From a virus (lineage: Duplodnaviria > Heunggongvirae > Uroviricota > Caudoviricetes), in the IMG/VR virus record IMGVR_UViG_2547132281_000001: a DNA stretch of 14,982 nt, one strand, 5' to 3'. The notes beneath the pieces were generated by a model, which made no database searches, was not told the DNA's origin, and worked only from the letters and a program-made list of their open reading frames with translations. The position numbers and the translations under genes are program-made. Each line of letters begins with the position of its first letter. Positions within the stretch are counted from its first letter, which is position 1. Positions 1,648 to 9,460 of the stretch are shown in pieces.

Positions 1648-2055
1648 TTATCTTTTATTTGTCCGCTGACGGGCTTTTAGTAATTCTTCAAAGAGTTTAT
1701 TGAAGTTTTTTACTCGAGCTCGCATTTCGGCGAGCTGGGTATCCTGTTCTGATTCTGGCAGTGCATTAAACAGCTCAAGGAGCTCTAGTTCTTTGGGGGA
1801 TAAGGCAACTGGCTTCTCAACAGGTGGTGTTGGTTGCTTGTCTTCATCGCCAAATAGAATCCATGTTGGTGAGCATTGCAATACTTTGCTGAGGGCAAAA
1901 AGGTTCTTCCCTGTAGGTTCACTATCATCCCGTTCCCATTGTGATACAGACACATGGGAGATTTTCAGGGCTTTAGCAAGAGACCTTTGGGTGTGTTTGA
2001 GGTTTTTCCGACGATACCTAATGCGTTCGCCGATAGTTAAATTTTTTGTTTCCAT
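1648..2055 (-). CDS. dicA: DicA, XRE-family HTH repressor (CI-like immunity repressor)
   Basis: 135-aa track ORF METKNLTIGERIRYRRKNLKHTQRSLAKALKISHVSVSQWERDDSEPTGKNLF... matches recalled K-12 DicA essentially throughout. Divergent from dicC. Confidence 0.9.
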   Translation of the reverse strand: METKNLTIGERIRYRRKNLKHTQRSLAKALKISHVSVSQWERDDSEPTGKNLFALSKVLQCSPTWILFGDEDKQPTPPVEKPVALSPKELELLELFNALPESEQDTQLAEMRARVKNFNKLFEELLKARQRTNKR

Positions 2056-2138: not shown

Positions 2139-2369
2139 ATGCTTAAAACTGACGCTCTTTTGTATTTCGGTTCAAAAACAAAACTTGCACAAGCAGCAGG
2201 TATTCGTTTGGCTTCGCTTTATAGCTGGAAAGGGGATTTAGTTCCCGAAGGTCGCGCGATGCGTCTACAGGAGGCATCTGGCGGGGAGCTTCAGTATGAT
2301 CCCAAAGTTTATGATGAATATCGTAAGACGAAGCGGGCGGGGCGGTTGAACAATGAAAATCACTCCTGA
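2139..2369 (+). CDS. dicC: DicC, Cro-like regulator (76 aa)
   Basis: Track ORF MLKTDALLYFGSKTKLAQAAGIRLASLYSWKGDLVPEGRAMRLQEASGGELQYDPKVYDEYRKTKRAGRLNNENHS matches recalled DicC. SD AAAGGTG upstream. Confidence 0.85.
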   Translation: MLKTDALLYFGSKTKLAQAAGIRLASLYSWKGDLVPEGRAMRLQEASGGELQYDPKVYDEYRKTKRAGRLNNENHS

Positions 2370-2874
2370 ACAGGCTCGTGAGGCTCTGGATGCCTGGATA
2401 TGTCGACCAGGAATGACACAGGAGCAGGCGACGATATTAATCACTGAAGCATTCTGGGCTTTGAAAGAGCGCCCGAACATCGATGTTCAGCGTGTCACAG
2501 ATGAAGGTGGCGCGGTTGATCAGCGAGCGCTTGGCGTTAATCGAGTGAAGATATTCGAACGCTGGAAGGCTATCGACACCAGGGATAAGCGTGAAAAGTT
2601 CACGGCGCTAGTGCCTGCGATTATGGAGGCTATCCGGATTAGTGATTTCAGGTTGTATCGTGAGATCAGTGATGGAAAAAGTATTACGTACATGATCGCC
2701 GGGTTAAATAAAGAATATGGCGATGTGGTGGAATCCGGACTGCTTTTTGCAGATCCTGCCGTTGTAGATCGTGAAACTGACGAACTTATAGAAAAAGCAA
2801 TTGCTTTCAAGCTTGCGTATCGACAGCAATACCAACAAAAAGCTGGATGGAATTATGAGTCTTCTTTTTGCTGA
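2353..2874 (+). CDS. Hypothetical phage early protein (173 aa)
   Basis: Long ORF directly after dicC, overlapping its stop by 17 nt, co-oriented with replication genes. No family recognised from sequence alone. Confidence 0.55.
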   Translation: MKITPEQAREALDAWICRPGMTQEQATILITEAFWALKERPNIDVQRVTDEGGAVDQRALGVNRVKIFERWKAIDTRDKREKFTALVPAIMEAIRISDFRLYREISDGKSITYMIAGLNKEYGDVVESGLLFADPAVVDRETDELIEKAIAFKLAYRQQYQQKAGWNYESSFC

Positions 2875-3820
2875 ACGCCCACTGGTTATAAACACGCAGC
2901 TGGCAATGAAAATTGGCTTAAACGAAGCCATTGTTTTGCAACAACTGCACTACTGGTTGAGAGATACCAACTCCGGCATGGAATGTGATGGTGTTCGCTG
3001 GATTTATAACACAACGGAACAATGGCTGGAACAGTTCCCATTCTGGTCAGAGTCAACGTTAAAGCGCGCGTTTGCAAGTCTGAAAACGCTGGGGCTTTTG
3101 CGTTGTGAAAAGCTCAATAAATCAAAGCGCGATATGACCAATTTCTACACGATCAACTACGGGAGCGAGCTTTTAGATGGTGGCAAATTGAGCGAATCCA
3201 TCGGTTTAAAATGCGCCGCTCCATCAGGTCAAAATGACACGATGGAAGAGGTCAAAATGAAACGCTCCATTGGTTCAAAACGACTCAATGTCATCGGGTC
3301 AAAATGGCCTGATGATCTTACAGAGAATACAACAGAGATTACTACAGAGAATAAAAAGACTTCTCGTCCGGAAGCTTCGCAACCGGACCCGCAGACGGTT
3401 GAACAGGATTTTTTAACCCGACACCCTGACGCGGTTGTGTTCAGTGCGAAAAAACGCCAGTGGGGCAGCCAGGAAGATTTGGCGTGTGCGCAGTGGATCT
3501 GGGGGCGAATCGTGAGTCTTTACGAGCAGGCCGCCAGCGATGATGGCGAGATTTCGCGACCGAAAGAACCCAACTGGACCGCATGGGCCAACGACGTGCG
3601 CACAATGCGGATGCTGGATGGCAGAACTCACAGACAAATTTGTGAAATGTTTGGTCGGGTGCAGCGGGATCCATTCTGGGTAAAAAATATCATGAGTCCG
3701 TCAAAGCTTCGCGAAAAATGGGATGAACTGGTTATCCGCCTGGGGCGTTCGTCTGTACAGCGTTGTGTGAATCATATTTCTGAGCCGGATACCGAAATTC
3801 CGCCGGGCTTCAGGGGGTAA
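2855..3820 (+). CDS. Phage replication initiation protein: replisome-organizer-like N-terminus with DnaT-like (primosomal protein I) C-terminus
   Basis: ATG at 2855 preferred over the track's TTG at 2801 (the 2801 start would overlap the preceding ORF by 74 nt). C-terminus ...NHISEPDTEIPPGFRG closely resembles the recalled E. coli DnaT C-terminus ...SEPDSQIPPGFRG. Sits in the lambdoid O/P slot. Confidence 0.7.
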   Translation: MSLLFAERPLVINTQLAMKIGLNEAIVLQQLHYWLRDTNSGMECDGVRWIYNTTEQWLEQFPFWSESTLKRAFASLKTLGLLRCEKLNKSKRDMTNFYTINYGSELLDGGKLSESIGLKCAAPSGQNDTMEEVKMKRSIGSKRLNVIGSKWPDDLTENTTEITTENKKTSRPEASQPDPQTVEQDFLTRHPDAVVFSAKKRQWGSQEDLACAQWIWGRIVSLYEQAASDDGEISRPKEPNWTAWANDVRTMRMLDGRTHRQICEMFGRVQRDPFWVKNIMSPSKLREKWDELVIRLGRSSVQRCVNHISEPDTEIPPGFRG

Positions 3821-3860
3821 GTGTTAATTTCTGGTCATGAGGTAATTTTCAGGAGGGCTT

Positions 3861-4283
3861 GTGGCAAAAGTTTTTACACAAGAAGAGCGGGAAAAAATTA
3901 AAGGGCAGGTTGTTGAACTCGTACGCCTGAGTGGGCGCGAGACGTTACGACAACTGGAAACTAAAACTGGGGCAACAAGATATCTGATGAGCGTTCTGGC
4001 CAGAGAGCTGGTTGCCAGTGGCGATGTATACAACTCTGGTTACGGGTTATTCCCGTCTGAACAGGCGCGTAAGGACTGGCAAAATGCCCGTAAAAAGCTC
4101 TCAAGGGCAAAGCCGAAGAAACCATCTGCGGTTGATCCGGACCTTATCTGGTCATTACCAGACGGAGAAATACGCCGCTACGACAGGCGCCTGAATATAA
4201 TCTGTCGCGAGTGCCGGAAGAGCGAAGCTATGCAGCGTGTACTGGCTTTCTATCAGGGTAATTTTCAGGAGGCGGTACTGTGA
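3861..4283 (+). CDS. Hypothetical protein (140 aa), GTG start
   Basis: SD AGGAGG at 3851-3856 then GTG at 3861. Basic C-terminal half with a CRECRK motif. Function not recognised. Confidence 0.55.
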   Translation: MAKVFTQEEREKIKGQVVELVRLSGRETLRQLETKTGATRYLMSVLARELVASGDVYNSGYGLFPSEQARKDWQNARKKLSRAKPKKPSAVDPDLIWSLPDGEIRRYDRRLNIICRECRKSEAMQRVLAFYQGNFQEAVL

Positions 4284-4402
4284 GTGAAATTAGCTATCAG
4301 GCTTCAATTGCCGCTGGCATTCGCATCAAAGGAGAGGAGCATGGAAATAAAACCAGAGGATTAGTTAAGCAATATCGTTTTATTTCCGATAAAAGAGGAT
4401 GA
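4280..4402 (+). CDS. Possible small ORF (40 aa), GTG start
   Basis: Second copy of GGTAATTTTCAGGAGG lies 7 nt before GTG 4280. Hand translation VSEISYQASIAAGIRIKGEEHGNKTRGLVKQYRFISDKRG. Overlaps the stop of the previous gene. Speculative. Confidence 0.25.
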   Translation: MSEISYQASIAAGIRIKGEEHGNKTRGLVKQYRFISDKRG

Positions 4403-4793
4403 CCCTCGTAATCAGGTTAATTTTCTTTATGAGCCATCGGAAAGACCATATTGCCATCACGCTTCTGTCCGGGTTGACGAAAAAAAGTGCGTCAGGTCCG
4501 CTATAAAATCTGCGGTGCAGTTGTGGAGCCATTTGACTGGATGCTCTCTGTGGCGAAAAGAGAAACCAGACTGGCAGATGATGTAAGGCTCTTGCGCCAG
4601 GAGGAACGGGAAAGGCGAAAAAAATACAGAAAAGCTAATTCAGATTGAGCGTAACGGGAAAGCGCGGATACGCAGGGTGACAAAATCCAGAACTGAATAA
4701 TTAAATTTAGCACTGTTAAAAATTTAATCCTTAACCGGAGGGATTTCTGCACCCTCAGAACATCAGGAGGCCGCCCGAAAGGGCGGTAGTTAA

Positions 4794-4928
4794 ATGCGAA
4801 AGTTTAAAATAATTATTGAAACGGGAATAGCCGGTGGAGATTTCGAGGATGAATTCGAAGTGGATAATGATGCGACGCCTGATGAAATACATGACGAAGC
4901 AAAAGATATTTTCTTTAACTACTGCAAT
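4794..4928 (+). pseudogene. ORF truncated after codon 45 by the IS1 insertion
   Basis: Track ORF 4794..5009 is native only to ...DIFFNYCN; from 4929 the reading frame runs into the IS1 terminal repeat. Acidic N-terminus MRKFKIIIETGIAGGDFEDEFEVDNDATPDEIHDEAKDIFFNYCN. Confidence 0.45.
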
Positions 4929-4943
4929 GGTAATGACTCCAAC

Positions 4944-5447
4944 TTATTGATAGTGTTTTATGTTCAGATAATGCCCGATGACTTTGTCATGCAGCTCCAC
5001 CGATTTTGAGAACGACAGCGACTTCCGTCCCAGCCGTGCCAGGTGCTGCCTCAGATTCAGGTTATGCCGCTCAATTCGCTGCGTATATCGCTTGCTGATT
5101 ACGTGCAGCTTTCCCTTCAGGCGGGATTCATACAGCGGCCAGCCATCCGTCATCCATATCACCACGTCAAAGGGTGACAGCAGGCTCATAAGACGCCCCA
5201 GCGTCGCCATCGTGCGTTCACCGAATACGTGCGCAACAACCGTCTTCCGGAGCCTGTCATACGAGTAAAACAGCCAGCGCTGGCGCGATTTAGCCCCGAC
5301 ATAGCCCCACTGTTCGTCCATTTCCGCGCAGACGATGACGTCACTGCCCGGCTGTATGCGCGAGGTTACCGACTGCGGCCTGAGTTTTTTAAGTGACGTA
5401 AAATCGTGTTGAGGCCAACGCCCATAATGCGGGCAGTTGTCCGGCAT
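4944..5447 (-). CDS. insB: IS1 InsB reading frame (transposase C-terminal part, expressed as InsAB' by frameshift)
   Basis: 167-aa track [61 protein letters not shown]... is canonical IS1 InsB. Confidence 0.95.
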
Positions 5448-5641
5448 CCAACGCCATTCATGGCCATATCAATGATTTTCTGGTGCGTACCGGGTTGAGA
5501 AGCGGTGTAAGTGAACTGCAGTTGCCATGTTTTACGGCAGTGAGAGCAGAGATAGCGCTGATGTCCGGCGGTGCTTTTGCCGTTACGCACCCCCCCGTCA
5601 GTAGCTGAACAGGAGGGACAGCTGATAGAAACAGAAGCCAC
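5366..5641 (-). CDS. insA: IS1 InsA (91 aa)
   Basis: Track [94 protein letters not shown] is canonical InsA. Confidence 0.95.
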
Positions 5642-5818
5642 TGGAGCACCTCAAAAACACCATCATACACTAAATCAGTAAGTTGGCAGCATCACCGAAT
5701 ATTTAGACTAAAGAGTTTGTAACGCTATGTAAGTGATTTTTTCTGGTTTAGATATTTATATGTCCGGCCAAATTGAGGTGTGTTTAAATGTAATTGCACA
5801 TTGATTGTAGGAGGAATA

Positions 5819-5998
5819 ATGAAAAACGCATTGCAGTTTTTGTTTGTTGCGTTCTGGTTGTTCGTATCATGTATGCCCATCATCTTCACAGCAAGGTATA
5901 TAGAAAAAGTTGATGTTTTGATATTAATATTTGGATATATAAATGCCCTTTTTTTAGGGGTGTTCATGGCGGTCATGTGCATTGAATACTGGCGGTAA
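5819..5998 (+). CDS. Small hydrophobic protein (59 aa, two predicted TM helices)
   Basis: Strong SD AGGAGG 6 nt before ATG 5819. MKNALQFLFVAFWLFVSCMPIIFTARYIEKVDVLILIFGYINALFLGVFMAVMCIEYWR. Visibly AT-rich context. Confidence 0.5.
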   Translation: MKNALQFLFVAFWLFVSCMPIIFTARYIEKVDVLILIFGYINALFLGVFMAVMCIEYWR

Positions 5999-6256
5999 AT
6001 ACAGCGAACGCCATTGGTTTAGTTGGATATTTACTGTGCCGGACAAAAACGGTTTGCGGGGAAATCTTAGTTAAATAGAATGACTGCGGGTGCTTGAGGC
6101 TATCTGTCTCAGGCATGAACACCAAAAGGCAGATAGAGAAAAGCCCCAGTTAACATTACGCGTCCTGCAAGACGCTTAACATTAATCTGAGGCCATATCT
6201 ATGCGACACATAGAGATTAGCCTCTTACGGACCGAAAGGTCAAGGAGAAGCAGGCT

Positions 6257-6391
6257 ATGAAGCAGCAAAAGGCGATGTTAATCGCCCTGATCGTCATCTG
6301 TTTAACCGTCATAGTGACGGCACTGGTAACGAGGAAAGACCTCTGCGAGGTGGAGGTCGCTGTCTTCACAGCTTACGAACCTGAGGAGTAA
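6257..6391 (+). CDS. hokD: Hok-family membrane toxin, HokD/RelF-like but 44 aa
   Basis: MKQQKAMLIALIVICLTVIVTALVTRKDLCEVEVAVFTAYEPEE. N-terminal 31 and C-terminal 13 residues match recalled HokD. SD AAGGAGAAG upstream. A 19-codon upstream ORF ends in ATGA overlap with the start. Confidence 0.8.
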   Translation: MKQQKAMLIALIVICLTVIVTALVTRKDLCEVEVAVFTAYEPEE

Positions 6392-6461
6392 AAGACCTGG
6401 CGAGGGAGAAATCCCTCGCCACCTCTGATGTGGCAGGCATCCTCAACGCACCCGCACTTAA

Positions 6462-6607: not shown

Positions 6608-6859
6608 ATGATGAACAGCGAAGAACTGAGTAAAATTTTTTGTGAAGATGGCCTCTATGCTGTGTGCGTTGAAAATGGAAATATTGTTAGTCATTACCGC
6701 ATTGTGTGTTTGCAAAAAAATGGGGCTGCGTTAATTAATTTTGTGGATGCCCGAGTGACGGACGGATTTATCTTGCGCGACGGTGAGTTTGTCACTTCAT
6801 TACAGGCATTGAAAGAGATCGGAATAAAAGCTGGCTTTTCTGCTTTTTCAGAAGAATAA
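6608..6859 (+). CDS. Hypothetical 83-aa protein (same length and position as rem in Qin)
   Basis: SD GGAAGGA before ATG. MMNSEELSKIFCEDGLYAVCVENGNIVSHYRIVCLQKNGAALINFVDARVTDGFILRDGEFVTSLQALKEIGIKAGFSAFSEE. Identification rests on synteny and length only. Confidence 0.5.
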   Translation: MMNSEELSKIFCEDGLYAVCVENGNIVSHYRIVCLQKNGAALINFVDARVTDGFILRDGEFVTSLQALKEIGIKAGFSAFSEE

Positions 6860-7205: not shown

Positions 7206-8255
7206 GTGCGGGTATTACTTCGACCTGTTCTGGTACCGGAACTCGGGCTGGTGATCGTTAAGCCGGGCCGTGAATCCATGCCGGTATTCCACAATACCCG
7301 GGTACTGGTGGAGCCGGAACCGAAAAGCATGCGTAATCTGCCGTCCGGGGTCGTTCCTGCCGTTCGCCAGCCGCTGGTGGAAGACAAAACATTGCTGCCG
7401 TTTTTCAGTAACGCACGGGTGATTCGTGCTGCTGGTGGTGCTGGTGCATTGTCTGACTGGCTGTTGCGCCATATTAAATCCTGCCAGTGGCCACACGGCG
7501 ATTATCACCACAGTGAAACCGTCATTCACCGTTATGGTACCGGCGCAATGGTGTTGTGCTGGCACTGCGACAACCAGTTGCGTGACCAGACCTCCGAATC
7601 ACTTGAGCAACTTGCTCACCAAAACTTGTCAGCATGGATGATTGACGTCATTCGTCACGCAATGAATGGCACACAGGAGCGGGAATTATCTCTGGCTGAA
7701 TTATCCTGGTGGGCGGTCCGCAATCAGGTGGCGGACGCGCTACCGGAAGCGGTATTACGTCGTTCGCTGGGGTTGCGTGCGGAAAAAATCCGCTCAATGT
7801 ACCGTGAAAGCGACATCGTACCGGGAGAGCAGACCGCCACCAGCATACTGAAACAGCGCACAAAAAATCTTGCGCCGCTGCCTCACGCCCACCAGCAACA
7901 GAACCCACCACAGGAAAAGACGGTGGTCAGCATTGCCGTTGATCCTGAGTCTCCGGAATCTTTCATGAAACGACCTAAACGTCGCCGCTGGGTTAACGAG
8001 AAATATACACGCTGGGTGAAGACACAGCCGTGTGCGTGTTGTGGTAAGCCAGCCGACGATCCCCATCACCTGATTGGTCATGGTCAGGGCGGAATGGGGA
8101 CAAAATCTCACGATATTTTCACGCTACCGCTGTGTCGGGAGCATCACAACGAGCTTCATGCGGATCCGCTGGCGTTCGAAGAAAAGCATGGTTCTCAGGT
8201 TGATTTAATTTTTCGTTTTCTTGATCACGCCTTTGCAACTGGCGTGCTTGGGTAA
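7206..8255 (+). CDS. ydfU: YdfU-like DUF968 protein with C-terminal Cys/His (HNH-like) motif, GTG start
   Basis: 349 aa, same length as Qin YdfU. SD GGAGG before GTG 7206. C-terminus CACCGKPADDPHHLIGHGQGG...LCREHHNELH. Confidence 0.75.
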   Translation: MRVLLRPVLVPELGLVIVKPGRESMPVFHNTRVLVEPEPKSMRNLPSGVVPAVRQPLVEDKTLLPFFSNARVIRAAGGAGALSDWLLRHIKSCQWPHGDYHHSETVIHRYGTGAMVLCWHCDNQLRDQTSESLEQLAHQNLSAWMIDVIRHAMNGTQERELSLAELSWWAVRNQVADALPEAVLRRSLGLRAEKIRSMYRESDIVPGEQTATSILKQRTKNLAPLPHAHQQQNPPQEKTVVSIAVDPESPESFMKRPKRRRWVNEKYTRWVKTQPCACCGKPADDPHHLIGHGQGGMGTKSHDIFTLPLCREHHNELHADPLAFEEKHGSQVDLIFRFLDHAFATGVLG

Positions 8256-8267
8256 AAGAGGTGACTG

Positions 8268-8642
8268 ATGCTCATAGATTTGGTTTTACCTTACCCACCG
8301 ACGGTGAACACTTACTGGCGACGCCGTGGCAGCACATATTTTATCTCGGAGGAGGGAAAGCGTTATCGCCGGGCTGTGGCGCTTATTGTTCGCCAGCAGC
8401 GGCTGAAATTAAGCCTGTCCGGAAGGCTGGCGATAAAGGTGATTGCAGAGCCACCGGATAAGCGTCGTCGCGACCTGGACAATATCCTGAAAGCACCGCT
8501 GGATGCGCTGACGCATGCGGGAGTGTTAATGGACGATGAGCAGTTTGATGAAATCAATATCGTTCGTGGTCAGCCAGTATCTGGTGGACGTCTGGGGGTG
8601 AAGATTTACCCCATAATGCATGAAGAGCAGGTCAAAAAATGA
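8268..8642 (+). CDS. rusA: RusA-family Holliday junction resolvase
   Basis: 124 aa. SD AAGAGG upstream. Motifs ...PPDKRRRDLDNILKAPLDALTHAGVLMDDEQ... align with recalled E. coli RusA (...[23 protein letters not shown]...). Confidence 0.8.
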   Translation: MLIDLVLPYPPTVNTYWRRRGSTYFISEEGKRYRRAVALIVRQQRLKLSLSGRLAIKVIAEPPDKRRRDLDNILKAPLDALTHAGVLMDDEQFDEINIVRGQPVSGGRLGVKIYPIMHEEQVKK

Positions 8643-9460
8643 AACTGGAAGATTTACCGAAATACTACTCCCCAAAATCCCCTTGCCTGACCGATGCATC
8701 GGCCTCAACGTCAAAAGATGCGCTGAGTATCACTGATGTGATGGCCGCGCAGGGCATGACACAGAATCGGGCTGAGATGGGGTTTTCTGCGTTCCTGGGG
8801 AAAATGGGCATCAGTATGAATGACAGGGCGCGGGCAACAGAATTACTGGCAGATTATGCACTCAGTCGGTGCGATCGTGTGGCGGCGTTGAGAAAACTTC
8901 CGGCAGAAATAAAACCGGTAGTGATGCGCATTATGGCTTCGTACGCTTTTGAGGATTATGCCCGCAGCGCAGCGAGTAAAAAGCAGTGCCCTTGTTGCTA
9001 TGGGGAAAAATTTATTGAAAGCGTAGTTTTTACAAACAAGGTCCAGTATCCGGATGGTAAGCCGCCGGTATGGGCAAAGTGTACGAAAGGTGTGTATCCG
9101 TCTTACTGGGAAGAATGGAAAAAAGTCAGGGAGGTGGTAAAAGTTGCCTGTCCGGAGTGTGGCGGAAAGGGTGAGGTTTCCACCGCCTGTAAGGATTGCC
9201 GTGGGCGTGGTGTCGCCATTCACCGTGAAGAGTCGGTAAAACGTGGTATGCCTGTTATCAGAGACTGCCAGCGTTGTGGTGGTCGTGGCTATGAAAGACT
9301 ACCATCAACGGAGGCATTTAATGCTATATGCGAGGTGACAAACCAGATAACACGCGCGTCATGGGAAAAAACAGTTAAGAAATTCTATGATGCGCTGGTG
9401 ACCCGGTTTGATATTGAAGAAGCATGGGCTGAGCGGCAGTTAAAAAAGGTAACTAGGTAA
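8639..9460 (+). CDS. Late-gene antiterminator Q (phage 21/QuuD-like, zinc-binding)
   Basis: 273 aa with several CxxC pairs (CPCCYG, CPECGGKG, CKDCRGRG, CQRCGGRG). Lies immediately upstream of a P_R'-like promoter and terminator and the lysis genes. ATGA overlap with rusA. Confidence 0.8.
   Translation: MKLEDLPKYYSPKSPCLTDASASTSKDALSITDVMAAQGMTQNRAEMGFSAFLGKMGISMNDRARATELLADYALSRCDRVAALRKLPAEIKPVVMRIMASYAFEDYARSAASKKQCPCCYGEKFIESVVFTNKVQYPDGKPPVWAKCTKGVYPSYWEEWKKVREVVKVACPECGGKGEVSTACKDCRGRGVAIHREESVKRGMPVIRDCQRCGGRGYERLPSTEAFNAICEVTNQITRASWEKTVKKFYDALVTRFDIEEAWAERQLKKVTR

Follow-up and report, generated by a model that had tools for sequence, protein, structure and literature searches.

The replication initiator of a lambdoid Escherichia coli prophage, encoded by the gene at positions 2855-3820 of a 14,982-nucleotide stretch of viral DNA (IMG/VR record IMGVR_UViG_2547132281_000001; the whole of this stretch is called the window in what follows), ends in a peptide of about 20 residues that resembles the C-terminal end of the host primosomal protein DnaT, and the type of such a tail predicts the type of helicase loader encoded next to it; among the matches listed in the scans of two sequence collections, the DnaT-type tail pairs with a DnaC-type loader or with none, and not with a homologue of the lambda P protein. 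Judging from its sequence, the gene is the origin-binding initiator of a mEp460/Qin-type prophage and is modular, an N-terminal winged helix, a disordered linker whose coding DNA carries iterons, a C-terminal domain (CTD) of the lambda O type and the tail following one another. We consider it somewhat probable that the tail of this lambda-O-type initiator docks a DnaC-type loader, or the complex of DnaB and DnaC, and that in the present prophage the complex recruited is that of the host.

The encoded protein terminates in VNHISEPDTEIPPGFRG (...RLGRSSVQRCVNHISEPDTEIPPGFRG* as translated), to be compared with VNTVSEPDSQIPPGFRG in E. coli DnaT. The two proteins agree at 15 of their last 21 positions; the consensus common to the initiator and DnaT reads (R/K)xDVNxxSxPDxxIPxGFRG, and the initiator shows the DnaT ending ...SEPDxxIPPGFRG-COOH. 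In a phmmer search of the sequences of the Protein Data Bank (PDB) only the last 21-26 residues align, to the DnaT C-terminus (2ru8_A, 6aep_A, and 9zbt_D; E values 0.008-0.03), while the NCBIfam DnaT model NF002770 matches the initiator only at model positions 158-179 of 179, with 17.2 bits against a cut-off of 201. The likeness to the DnaT C-terminus, which had been noticed in a sequence-only reading of this DNA, is thus borne out at the extreme end of the protein. Nine of the 15 identical residues are specified by different codons in the two genes, which indicates conservation at the protein level and not a recent transfer of DNA. Within the family of the initiator, conservation is at least 90% in the IPxGFRG core and 29% in residues 297-308, just before the tail core; residues 298-313 have a predicted local distance difference test score (pLDDT) below 50 in the AlphaFold2 (AF2) model, and the tail was modelled without confidence in both AF2 runs (full length and domain alone). 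A conserved core preceded by a variable linker is characteristic of short linear motifs that end a disordered segment.

Upstream of the tail the resemblance to DnaT ceases. A 124-sequence profile of residues 183-299, compared by hhalign with DnaT residues 84-157, 84-179, and 1-83, gave probabilities of 0.1-0.3%; a 31-sequence profile of the CTD retrieved no DnaT chain from the PDB at E ≤ 10; PF17948 (DnaT) did not match the initiator, and Foldseek searches with two AF2 models returned no DnaT. A five-sequence MAFFT alignment paired the P[ND]W...IRL and FW/KL motifs of DnaT with the O-type CTD, as whole-domain homology would have it; this pairing is treated as a chance one because hhalign, the PDB profile search, Pfam, and Foldseek all fail to support it. 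On these comparisons the initiator is not a member of the DnaT family and, since no profile similarity extends past about 21 residues, the DnaT-mimic domain that the sequence-only reading had proposed is refuted. The two proteins (DnaT, or primosomal protein i, is represented by PDB entries 2ru8, 4ou6/7, 6aep, and 9zbt/9zbu) share these last ~21 residues, which in each of them form the very end of the chain, behind a flexible segment; the initiator differs in lacking the DnaT N-domain, the acidic PriB-binding linker, and the three-helix-bundle CTD, in being sequence-specific through its iterons (as predicted) and independent of PriA and of fork structure, and in being encoded by a gene that does not adjoin dnaC.

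The same tail is carried by proteins of quite different build. A scan of IMG/VR with a DNA pattern for D-x-x-I-P-x-G-F-R-G-stop yielded at least 120 loci, and 112 of 120 are the C-termini of open reading frames (ORFs) of at least 90 residues (here and below, such counts are those among the matches listed). At least five unrelated classes of domain precede the tail: the lambda-O CTD, a 'GTEFVQQAxTFFGP' ('TFFGP') domain, a YdaU/DUF1376-type C-domain (represented among others by Rac YdaU, whose end reads NTVSLPDSAIPPGFRG), a Phg_2220_C-like domain, and the complete DnaT three-helix bundle. The proteins of the last class, about 270-350 residues long and found in phages and prophages, fuse a phage-type N-domain to the bundle and the tail (L230, L170, L198, and L216 in IMG/VR; L355, L421, L469, and L471 in GTDB), as in ...FTMPDSWTPDPDFTKRAALWGVNL...AFHHDQWQQKLARSVQ...EPDSEIPPGFRG; several of them are followed by a DnaC homologue, and this arrangement, which mirrors dnaT-dnaC, suggests that the chromosomal operon descends from such a phage module. 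In GTDB, the genuine tail matches whose titles were displayed all belong to Enterobacterales, and 34 matches to the pattern in other phyla, which are not ORF-terminal, were taken as chance and set aside.

The association between tail and loader emerges when the genes that follow are compared, a loader being scored as DnaC-like if it lies within the next two ORFs after the tail-bearing initiator. Among the viral loci with a DnaT-type tail and enough flanking sequence (93), 49 have a DnaC-like gene, 44 have no loader, and none has a P-like gene; the corresponding figures are 14, 11, and 0 in the initiator's own family (25 loci), and none of the 80 e14-type relatives, which end in IPAGFRG, has a loader of either type. 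The lambda-type tail FDNTDWxxG, on the other hand, is followed by a P-like gene in all 51 loci that have enough flanking sequence, with neither a DnaC-like nor a loader-less case; as a control, the O-CTD motif is present in 57 of 58 ORFs that end in FDNTDWxxG. In GTDB genomes, 58 of 59 chromosomal dnaT genes are followed by dnaC and one by no loader, and the 25 tail-bearing prophage initiators of species-representative genomes divide into 15 with DnaC and 10 without a loader, no P being present in either set. The reciprocal test gives the same picture, IPPGFRG terminating 75 of the 77 ORFs located upstream of YdaV-like genes. The DnaC homologue of tail-bearing loci is 96% identical to Rac YdaV (Pfam IstB_IS21, 2.5e-19), and its start typically lies 7 nt past the stop codon of the initiator. 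The tail can also differ between similar domains: the protein of locus L164 has a CTD 71% identical to that of the initiator, but its tail is of the WNSAEAWENTL type and the gene that follows encodes a P homologue (E 6e-43).

When the loader diverges, the tail is either kept or diverges with it. IPxGFRG is maintained upstream of DnaC homologues 55-80% identical to YdaV (Gifsy-2, Klebsiella phage ST13-OXA48phi12.4, and Shigella phage 75/02 Stx), and divergent loaders stand beside divergent tails in Aeromonas (...PPGFN), Vibrio (...VNHIGTNFEKPEGWA; ...KPEGWA), and Morganella (...FIPEDF); in Burkholderia and Pseudomonas phages with divergent DnaC-like loaders no clear tail was found. The modules of Rac (YdaU-YdaV), Gifsy-2 (the gpO homologue and its DnaC-like protein), and phage 75/02 Stx (gp15-gp16) have the same tail as the initiator (YdaU ...NTVSLPDSAIPPGFRG, Gifsy-2 ...RDVNHISAPDKTIPTGFRG, and 75/02 Stx ...RCVNHISEPDTEIPPGFRG) and DUF977 downstream, and half of the initiator's family is so arranged; they differ from the present locus in the DnaC-like gene and the usual DUF1627 gene, both absent beside the initiator, and in the domain that precedes the tail, which is of the DUF1376 or 'TFFGP' type there and an O-CTD here.

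Within the O-CTD family itself, the 123 representatives examined comprise 15 with DnaT-type tails, 17 with lambda-type tails (...NTDWxxG...), 8 with WNxxEAW, and many with others. Recurrent classes among the proteins P0241-P0389 are ...NTDWxxG(L/V)..., ...HWNSxEAWExxL, ...GNFxSQDYRAGxxxDGSF, and ...RLGIxxPxxEVxL; a partner, P-like in both cases, could be linked to the NTDWxxG and WNSxEAW types only, and the remaining classes may mark further types of loader or helicase. One O-CTD protein, P0300, carries two tandem copies of a tail motif (...DYSIPKGFRGHDENEGYRGFGSPQKHVSDDVETEIPHGFRG). The diversity described here comes from the DNA-pattern scans; searches for relatives with a diverse CTD alignment and with P0249 returned the near-identical e14-type group only.

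These patterns bear on a different role that may be envisaged for the tail, namely that it enhances self-association and the binding of single-stranded DNA (ssDNA), so as to build a cooperative O-some and stabilise the unwound strand, the helicase being recruited by another surface such as the O-type CTD. Truncation of DnaT by 18 residues at this end leaves dimers where the complete protein forms trimers (Szymanski 2013, as reported in PMC5314882), the ssDNA binding of DnaT 84-153 is weaker by a factor of about 2-3, and less cooperative, when compared with DnaT 84-179 (PMC4132743), and the tail does contain a conserved aromatic residue and an Arg; yet its occurrence after at least five unrelated domains fits poorly with the idea that it docks on a cognate core, a general aid to oligomerisation or ssDNA binding should not be barred from P-type modules, from which this tail is absent (0 of 93 loci with P, against 51 of 51 for the lambda-type tail, among the matches listed), and the sequence of the tail co-varies with the divergence of the DnaC-like protein. 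We regard this role as unlikely.

The present prophage is of the loader-less kind. The window is the early-right region of an E. coli lambdoid prophage, 99.6% identical to E. coli chromosomes and, with the exception of the immunity region and of a segment containing IS1, collinear with phage mEp460_ev081 (LR597641 28981-44172). Homologues of P, DnaC or DnaB were found neither in the window nor in mEp460, whose complete genome is collinear with it: tblastn searches with the phage DnaC homologue and with lambda P returned noise only in the former and nothing in the 45.9 kb of the latter, where the sole replication gene, annotated 'Primosomal protein I', encodes a protein 96% identical to the initiator and is followed by DUF977. 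The same gene lies directly downstream in 31 of the 44 loader-less tail loci, as in the window. The sequence-only reading had judged the ORFs of 140 and 40 residues that follow the initiator too short for a helicase loader, and this agrees with their assignment to DUF977/Ren-like proteins and to PHROG 37408. DUF977 was also considered as a cryptic loader and rejected, being present after the initiator with or without a DnaC homologue and Ren-like by PHROG; the gene orders of the siblings, D1-D2-D0 or D0 alone, imply that it does not substitute for a loader. In most family members that keep the loader (for instance L195, L210, and L215) a DUF1627 protein (YdaW-like, 256 residues, with a helix-turn-helix (HTH) N-terminus) is encoded between the DnaC-like gene and DUF977, L275 being without it; in the loader-less variant it is lost together with the DnaC-like gene.

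The absence of a loader could also be taken as a sign of decay, a DnaC-like gene that once followed the initiator having been deleted, with a dead prophage origin and a vestigial tail as the outcome. Such a history would fit the 14 of 25 family members, among the matches listed, that keep the DnaC-like and DUF1627 genes between the initiator and DUF977, as well as the IS1 insertion 1.1 kb downstream in the window; it is very improbable in our view, given that the complete mEp460_ev081 genome has the same loader-less arrangement, that 80 e14-type viral contigs and 10 of 25 prophage initiators of species-representative genomes (among the matches listed) are loader-less too, and that the tail is conserved under synonymous change.

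Compared over its full length, the protein matches PHROG 391 ('replication initiation O-like') closely (E 4.5e-95; residues 17-321, profile positions 11-298 of 298), and the ATG at 2855 coincides with the start annotated in phage mEp460. The gene is common, being present in thousands of E. coli genomes, where it is usually annotated as 'hypothetical protein', 'phage O protein family' or 'Primosomal protein I'. The full-length AF2 model, of modest confidence (mean pLDDT 57.9), places a winged helix at residues 14-100, a disordered linker at 109-174, and a helical C-domain at 183-296. The N-domain has the secondary structure H-H-E-E-H-H-E-E (pLDDT 55-82); its top Foldseek matches are weak and are winged helices, among them the N-domains of staphylococcal RepA initiators (5kbj, 4pql, and 4pt7) and DnaD-N (2v79), none reaching E ≤ 1e-3. 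At the sequence level it matches the N-domains of phage initiators and replisome organisers (PHROG 6493, 5e-36; PHROG 11233, 1.5e-19), and residues 2-129 are about 46% identical to Staphylococcus and Bacillus phage proteins (tblastn), in agreement with the replisome-organiser character that the sequence-only reading had attributed to the N-terminal half; no Pfam family matched this domain at E ≤ 0.01, Phage_rep_O included. The CTD is 39% identical to that of lambda O over residues 183-294 (tblastn, E 6e-18) and, in a longer alignment, 35% over residues 147-294 (blastp, E 1.6e-27); modelled alone, it is helical with a small hairpin (mean pLDDT 73.5, core 84-91). This lambda-O CTD family is widespread, with 3047 representative proteins at E ≤ 1e-3 (clusters at 50% identity), and has no Pfam-A match (hmmscan), no relative among PDB sequences, and no Foldseek fold match.

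The origin appears to lie within the gene itself, as the location of the iterons and of the adjacent A-rich stretch inside the coding region suggests. An iteron array, which the sequence-only reading had proposed looking for in or next to the gene, was found in the segment that encodes part of the disordered linker, each unit having partial dyad symmetry; the 15-kb window contains four matches to the iteron consensus, where 0.29 would be expected, and all four fall in 3198-3306, a comparison that is partly circular in that the consensus was derived from the same copies. Tandem Repeats Finder (TRF) did not score the array, because its units are less than 70% identical outside the cores. Directly after the iterons, the DNA at 3310-3369 has a GC content of 0.35 and an AT skew of +0.28, and by analogy with ori-lambda the iterons would be bound by the initiator and the A-rich stretch would be the unwinding element (Table 1).

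Iterons inside the gene are found also in an e14-type initiator 47% identical to the present one (L002 3627-3749, phage vB_EcoM-720R4), where they recur every 15 bp (GTCAAAATCTGACSC) and share the TCAAAAT core of the present iterons, and where the array encodes a repetitive DPSKSDASKS peptide. The arrangement is close to that of lambda O and ori-lambda: the origin is in the gene, four to five iterons at a spacing of ~23 bp occupy the linker-coding region and are followed by an A/T-rich stretch, the CTDs are homologous (35-39% identity), and the initiator gene stands after a cII-like gene and before a ren-like one. The differences concern the N-domain, which is another winged helix without Phage_rep_O, the gene that follows, which is DUF977 and not P, and the tail, the lambda one (...LDLTNTDWIYGVDL) being replaced by the DnaT-type tail.

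Table 1: Features of the initiator gene and of its neighbours in the window.
Feature	Position	Strand	Basis or remarks
DicA-like repressor	1648-2055	-	NCBIfam DicA, 1.1e-70
DicC/Cro-like protein	2139-2369	+	NCBIfam DicC, 1.8e-47
YdaT/CII-like protein, overlapping the start of the initiator gene	2353-2874	+	Pfam YdaT_toxin; PHROG 163, CII-like
Replication initiator gene, 321 residues	2855-3820	+	Lambda-O-type architecture and DnaT-type C-terminal tail
N-terminal winged-helix domain, residues ~14-100, presumed iteron-binding	2894-3154	+	AF2, Foldseek, PHROG, tblastn
Iteron array, five units, spacing 23-24 bp, core CCATYRGKTYAAAAYG (GGTCAAAATG)	3185-3314		Repeat search, inverted pair
A-rich, low-GC stretch, candidate unwinding element; 12-bp repeat ACAGAGAATACA x2.8 at 3320-3353	3315-3360		TRF, repeat search
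C-terminal domain, residues 183-296, lambda O CTD homologue	3401-3742	+	tblastn, blastp, AF2
Pre-tail linker, variable and disordered, residues 297-300 and following	3743-3754	+	Conservation, pLDDT
DnaT-type tail, residues 301-321, VQRCVNHISEPDTEIPPGFRG-COOH (stop codon 3818-3820)	3755-3817	+	phmmer, NCBIfam, codon comparison
DUF977/Ren-like small winged-helix protein, 140 residues	3861-4283	+	Pfam DUF977, 7.6e-29; PHROG 142 'Ren-like exclusion', 1.2e-47
40-residue ORF	4280-4402	+	PHROG 37408, 2e-32

From these elements we infer that DnaC-type loaders dock on the tail, the contact being made with either DnaC or DnaB6-DnaC6. The N-terminal winged helix would bind the five iterons located in the linker-coding region of its own gene, the A-rich stretch beside them would open, and the short disordered linker would present the C-terminal peptide of ~20 residues, which would dock the DnaC-type loader complex. 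In phages with a DnaC homologue of their own, the tail would engage this phage-encoded loader, presumably in its complex with host DnaB; in a loader-less phage such as the present one, the partner would be host DnaB6-DnaC6, which the initiator would have to recruit, no loader being encoded by the phage, and which would be brought straight to the opened origin. The initiator would thus act at the origin as DnaT is thought to act at an abandoned fork, both handing a DNA site to DnaB-DnaC in this proposal.

A further possibility is that the tail binds PriA and/or PriB, so that the host restart preprimosome would be assembled at the opened origin and would in turn load DnaB. The CTD of DnaT, which docks the HD2 and CTD of PriA, leads directly into the tail, and the linker docks PriB (PMC13377028); the genuine tails with a source genome seen come, among the matches listed, from Enterobacterales, the group that has PriB and DnaT. 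The interfaces described by cryo-electron microscopy (cryo-EM) are, however, the surface of the DnaT CTD and the linker, PMC13377028 containing neither the word 'tail' nor, in its interface passages, a description of residues ~160-179; the initiator has no DnaT CTD and no acidic linker; and half of the tail-bearing phages, among the matches listed, have a DnaC homologue of their own immediately downstream, which points to the loader and not to PriA or PriB. We therefore find this role quite improbable. As regards the partners that the sequence-only reading had proposed for the C-terminus of the initiator, recruitment of the DnaC/DnaB loader gains strong indirect support from the association between tail and loader, and that of PriA/PriB gains none.

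Several considerations weigh against the docking of a DnaC-type loader by the tail. The partner is deduced from gene neighbourhood alone and, as the DNA encoding the tail ends 7 nt from the start of the dnaC-like gene, co-inheritance could in part reflect linkage within a mosaic cassette; the counts, moreover, are those of the matches listed in both collection scans, and the loci are phylogenetically clustered and not independent. In DnaT, loss of residues 154/162-179 turns a trimeric protein into a dimeric one (Szymanski et al. 2013; reported in PMC5314882), and the two- to three-fold weaker and less cooperative ssDNA binding of the 84-153 fragment relative to 84-179 (PMC4132743) likewise assigns other tasks to this segment. 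The 2026 cryo-EM paper proposes the DnaT N-terminal domain, and not the tail, as the recruiter of DnaB/DnaC (PMC13377028). Finally, DopC, which matches the DnaT C-terminal structure 2ru8_A by HHpred, pairs with the P-like protein DopE (PMC5509034). In this DopC-DopE system of Cellvibrionales and Oceanospirillales (Brezellec et al. 2017, PMC5509034), DopC is an O-like protein with an N-terminal HTH, and it resembles the initiator in combining a DnaT-type C-terminus with a phage-initiator N-terminus; it differs in being chromosomal, in having no iterons and a P-like partner, and in that the match reported is to the DnaT C-terminal domain.

Some features of the surrounding DNA may be recorded here. 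Farther downstream of the 40-residue ORF are found IS1, DUF968, RusA, and a Q-like protein. The IS1 copy is complete (768 bp, minus strand, 4929-5696; InsA 5366-5641 and InsB 4944-5447) and lies ~1.1 kb downstream of the initiator gene, within a segment (4270-6067) that has no counterpart in mEp460_ev081. A 16-mer, GGTAATTTTCAGGAGG, occurs twice, at 3841-3856 and 4257-4272, each time shortly before a GTG start codon (that of DUF977 at 3861 and that of the 40-residue ORF at 4280); it may serve both genes as a ribosome-binding site or mark a junction, and is possibly a linker at which cassettes recombine. The genes at 7206-8255 (DUF968-type, 349 residues) and 8639-9460 (273 residues, cysteine-rich), which flank rusA, are both labelled 'Phage antitermination protein Q' in the mEp460 record (L554); at most one of the two products is likely to be Q. 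By collinearity with mEp460, ~6257-6412 corresponds to a small ORF of the hok/mok type ('MokW') and 6608-6859 to 'rem', in a Qin-like accessory region.

The resemblance between phage initiators and DnaT is not new as such, since annotation pipelines use the name 'Primosomal protein I' and an O-like protein that ends like DnaT is already on record (Brezellec et al. 2017); a literature search found no description of a similarity confined to a portable tail of ~20 residues, nor of its exclusive pairing with DnaC-type loaders or with none, and the string PPGFRG gave no match in it. The main interest of the initiator is that it provides a testable hypothesis for DnaT. The way in which DnaB-DnaC is recruited by the restart preprimosome of E. 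coli has been described as unknown; according to papers of 2024 and 2026, a direct contact of DnaC with PriA, PriB or DnaT is not on record, and the DnaT N-terminal domain is suggested for this task. The phage data give a specific hypothesis, in which a 20-residue peptide has few candidate partners, and a natural experiment, in which the type of tail switches with the type of loader even between initiators with CTDs more than 70% identical. It is plausible, though somewhat short of an even chance, that the DnaT peptide (R/K)RDVNxxSxPDxxIPxGFRG is the site at which the preprimosome (PriA-PriB-DnaT) docks DnaC or DnaB6-DnaC6, that it arose in phages as a 'DnaC-type loader address tag', portable enough for enterobacterial phages to graft it onto any origin-binding protein, that loader-less phages such as this prophage and mEp460 take the host DnaB-DnaC, and that the dnaT-dnaC operon derives from a phage module made of a tail-bearing initiator and DnaC. 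The same data would account for replication with the initiator alone in widespread lambdoid phages of the mEp460/Qin and e14/CPS-53 types, and they suggest that the C-terminal tails of initiators could be used to predict the helicase-loading strategy of a phage from its sequence.

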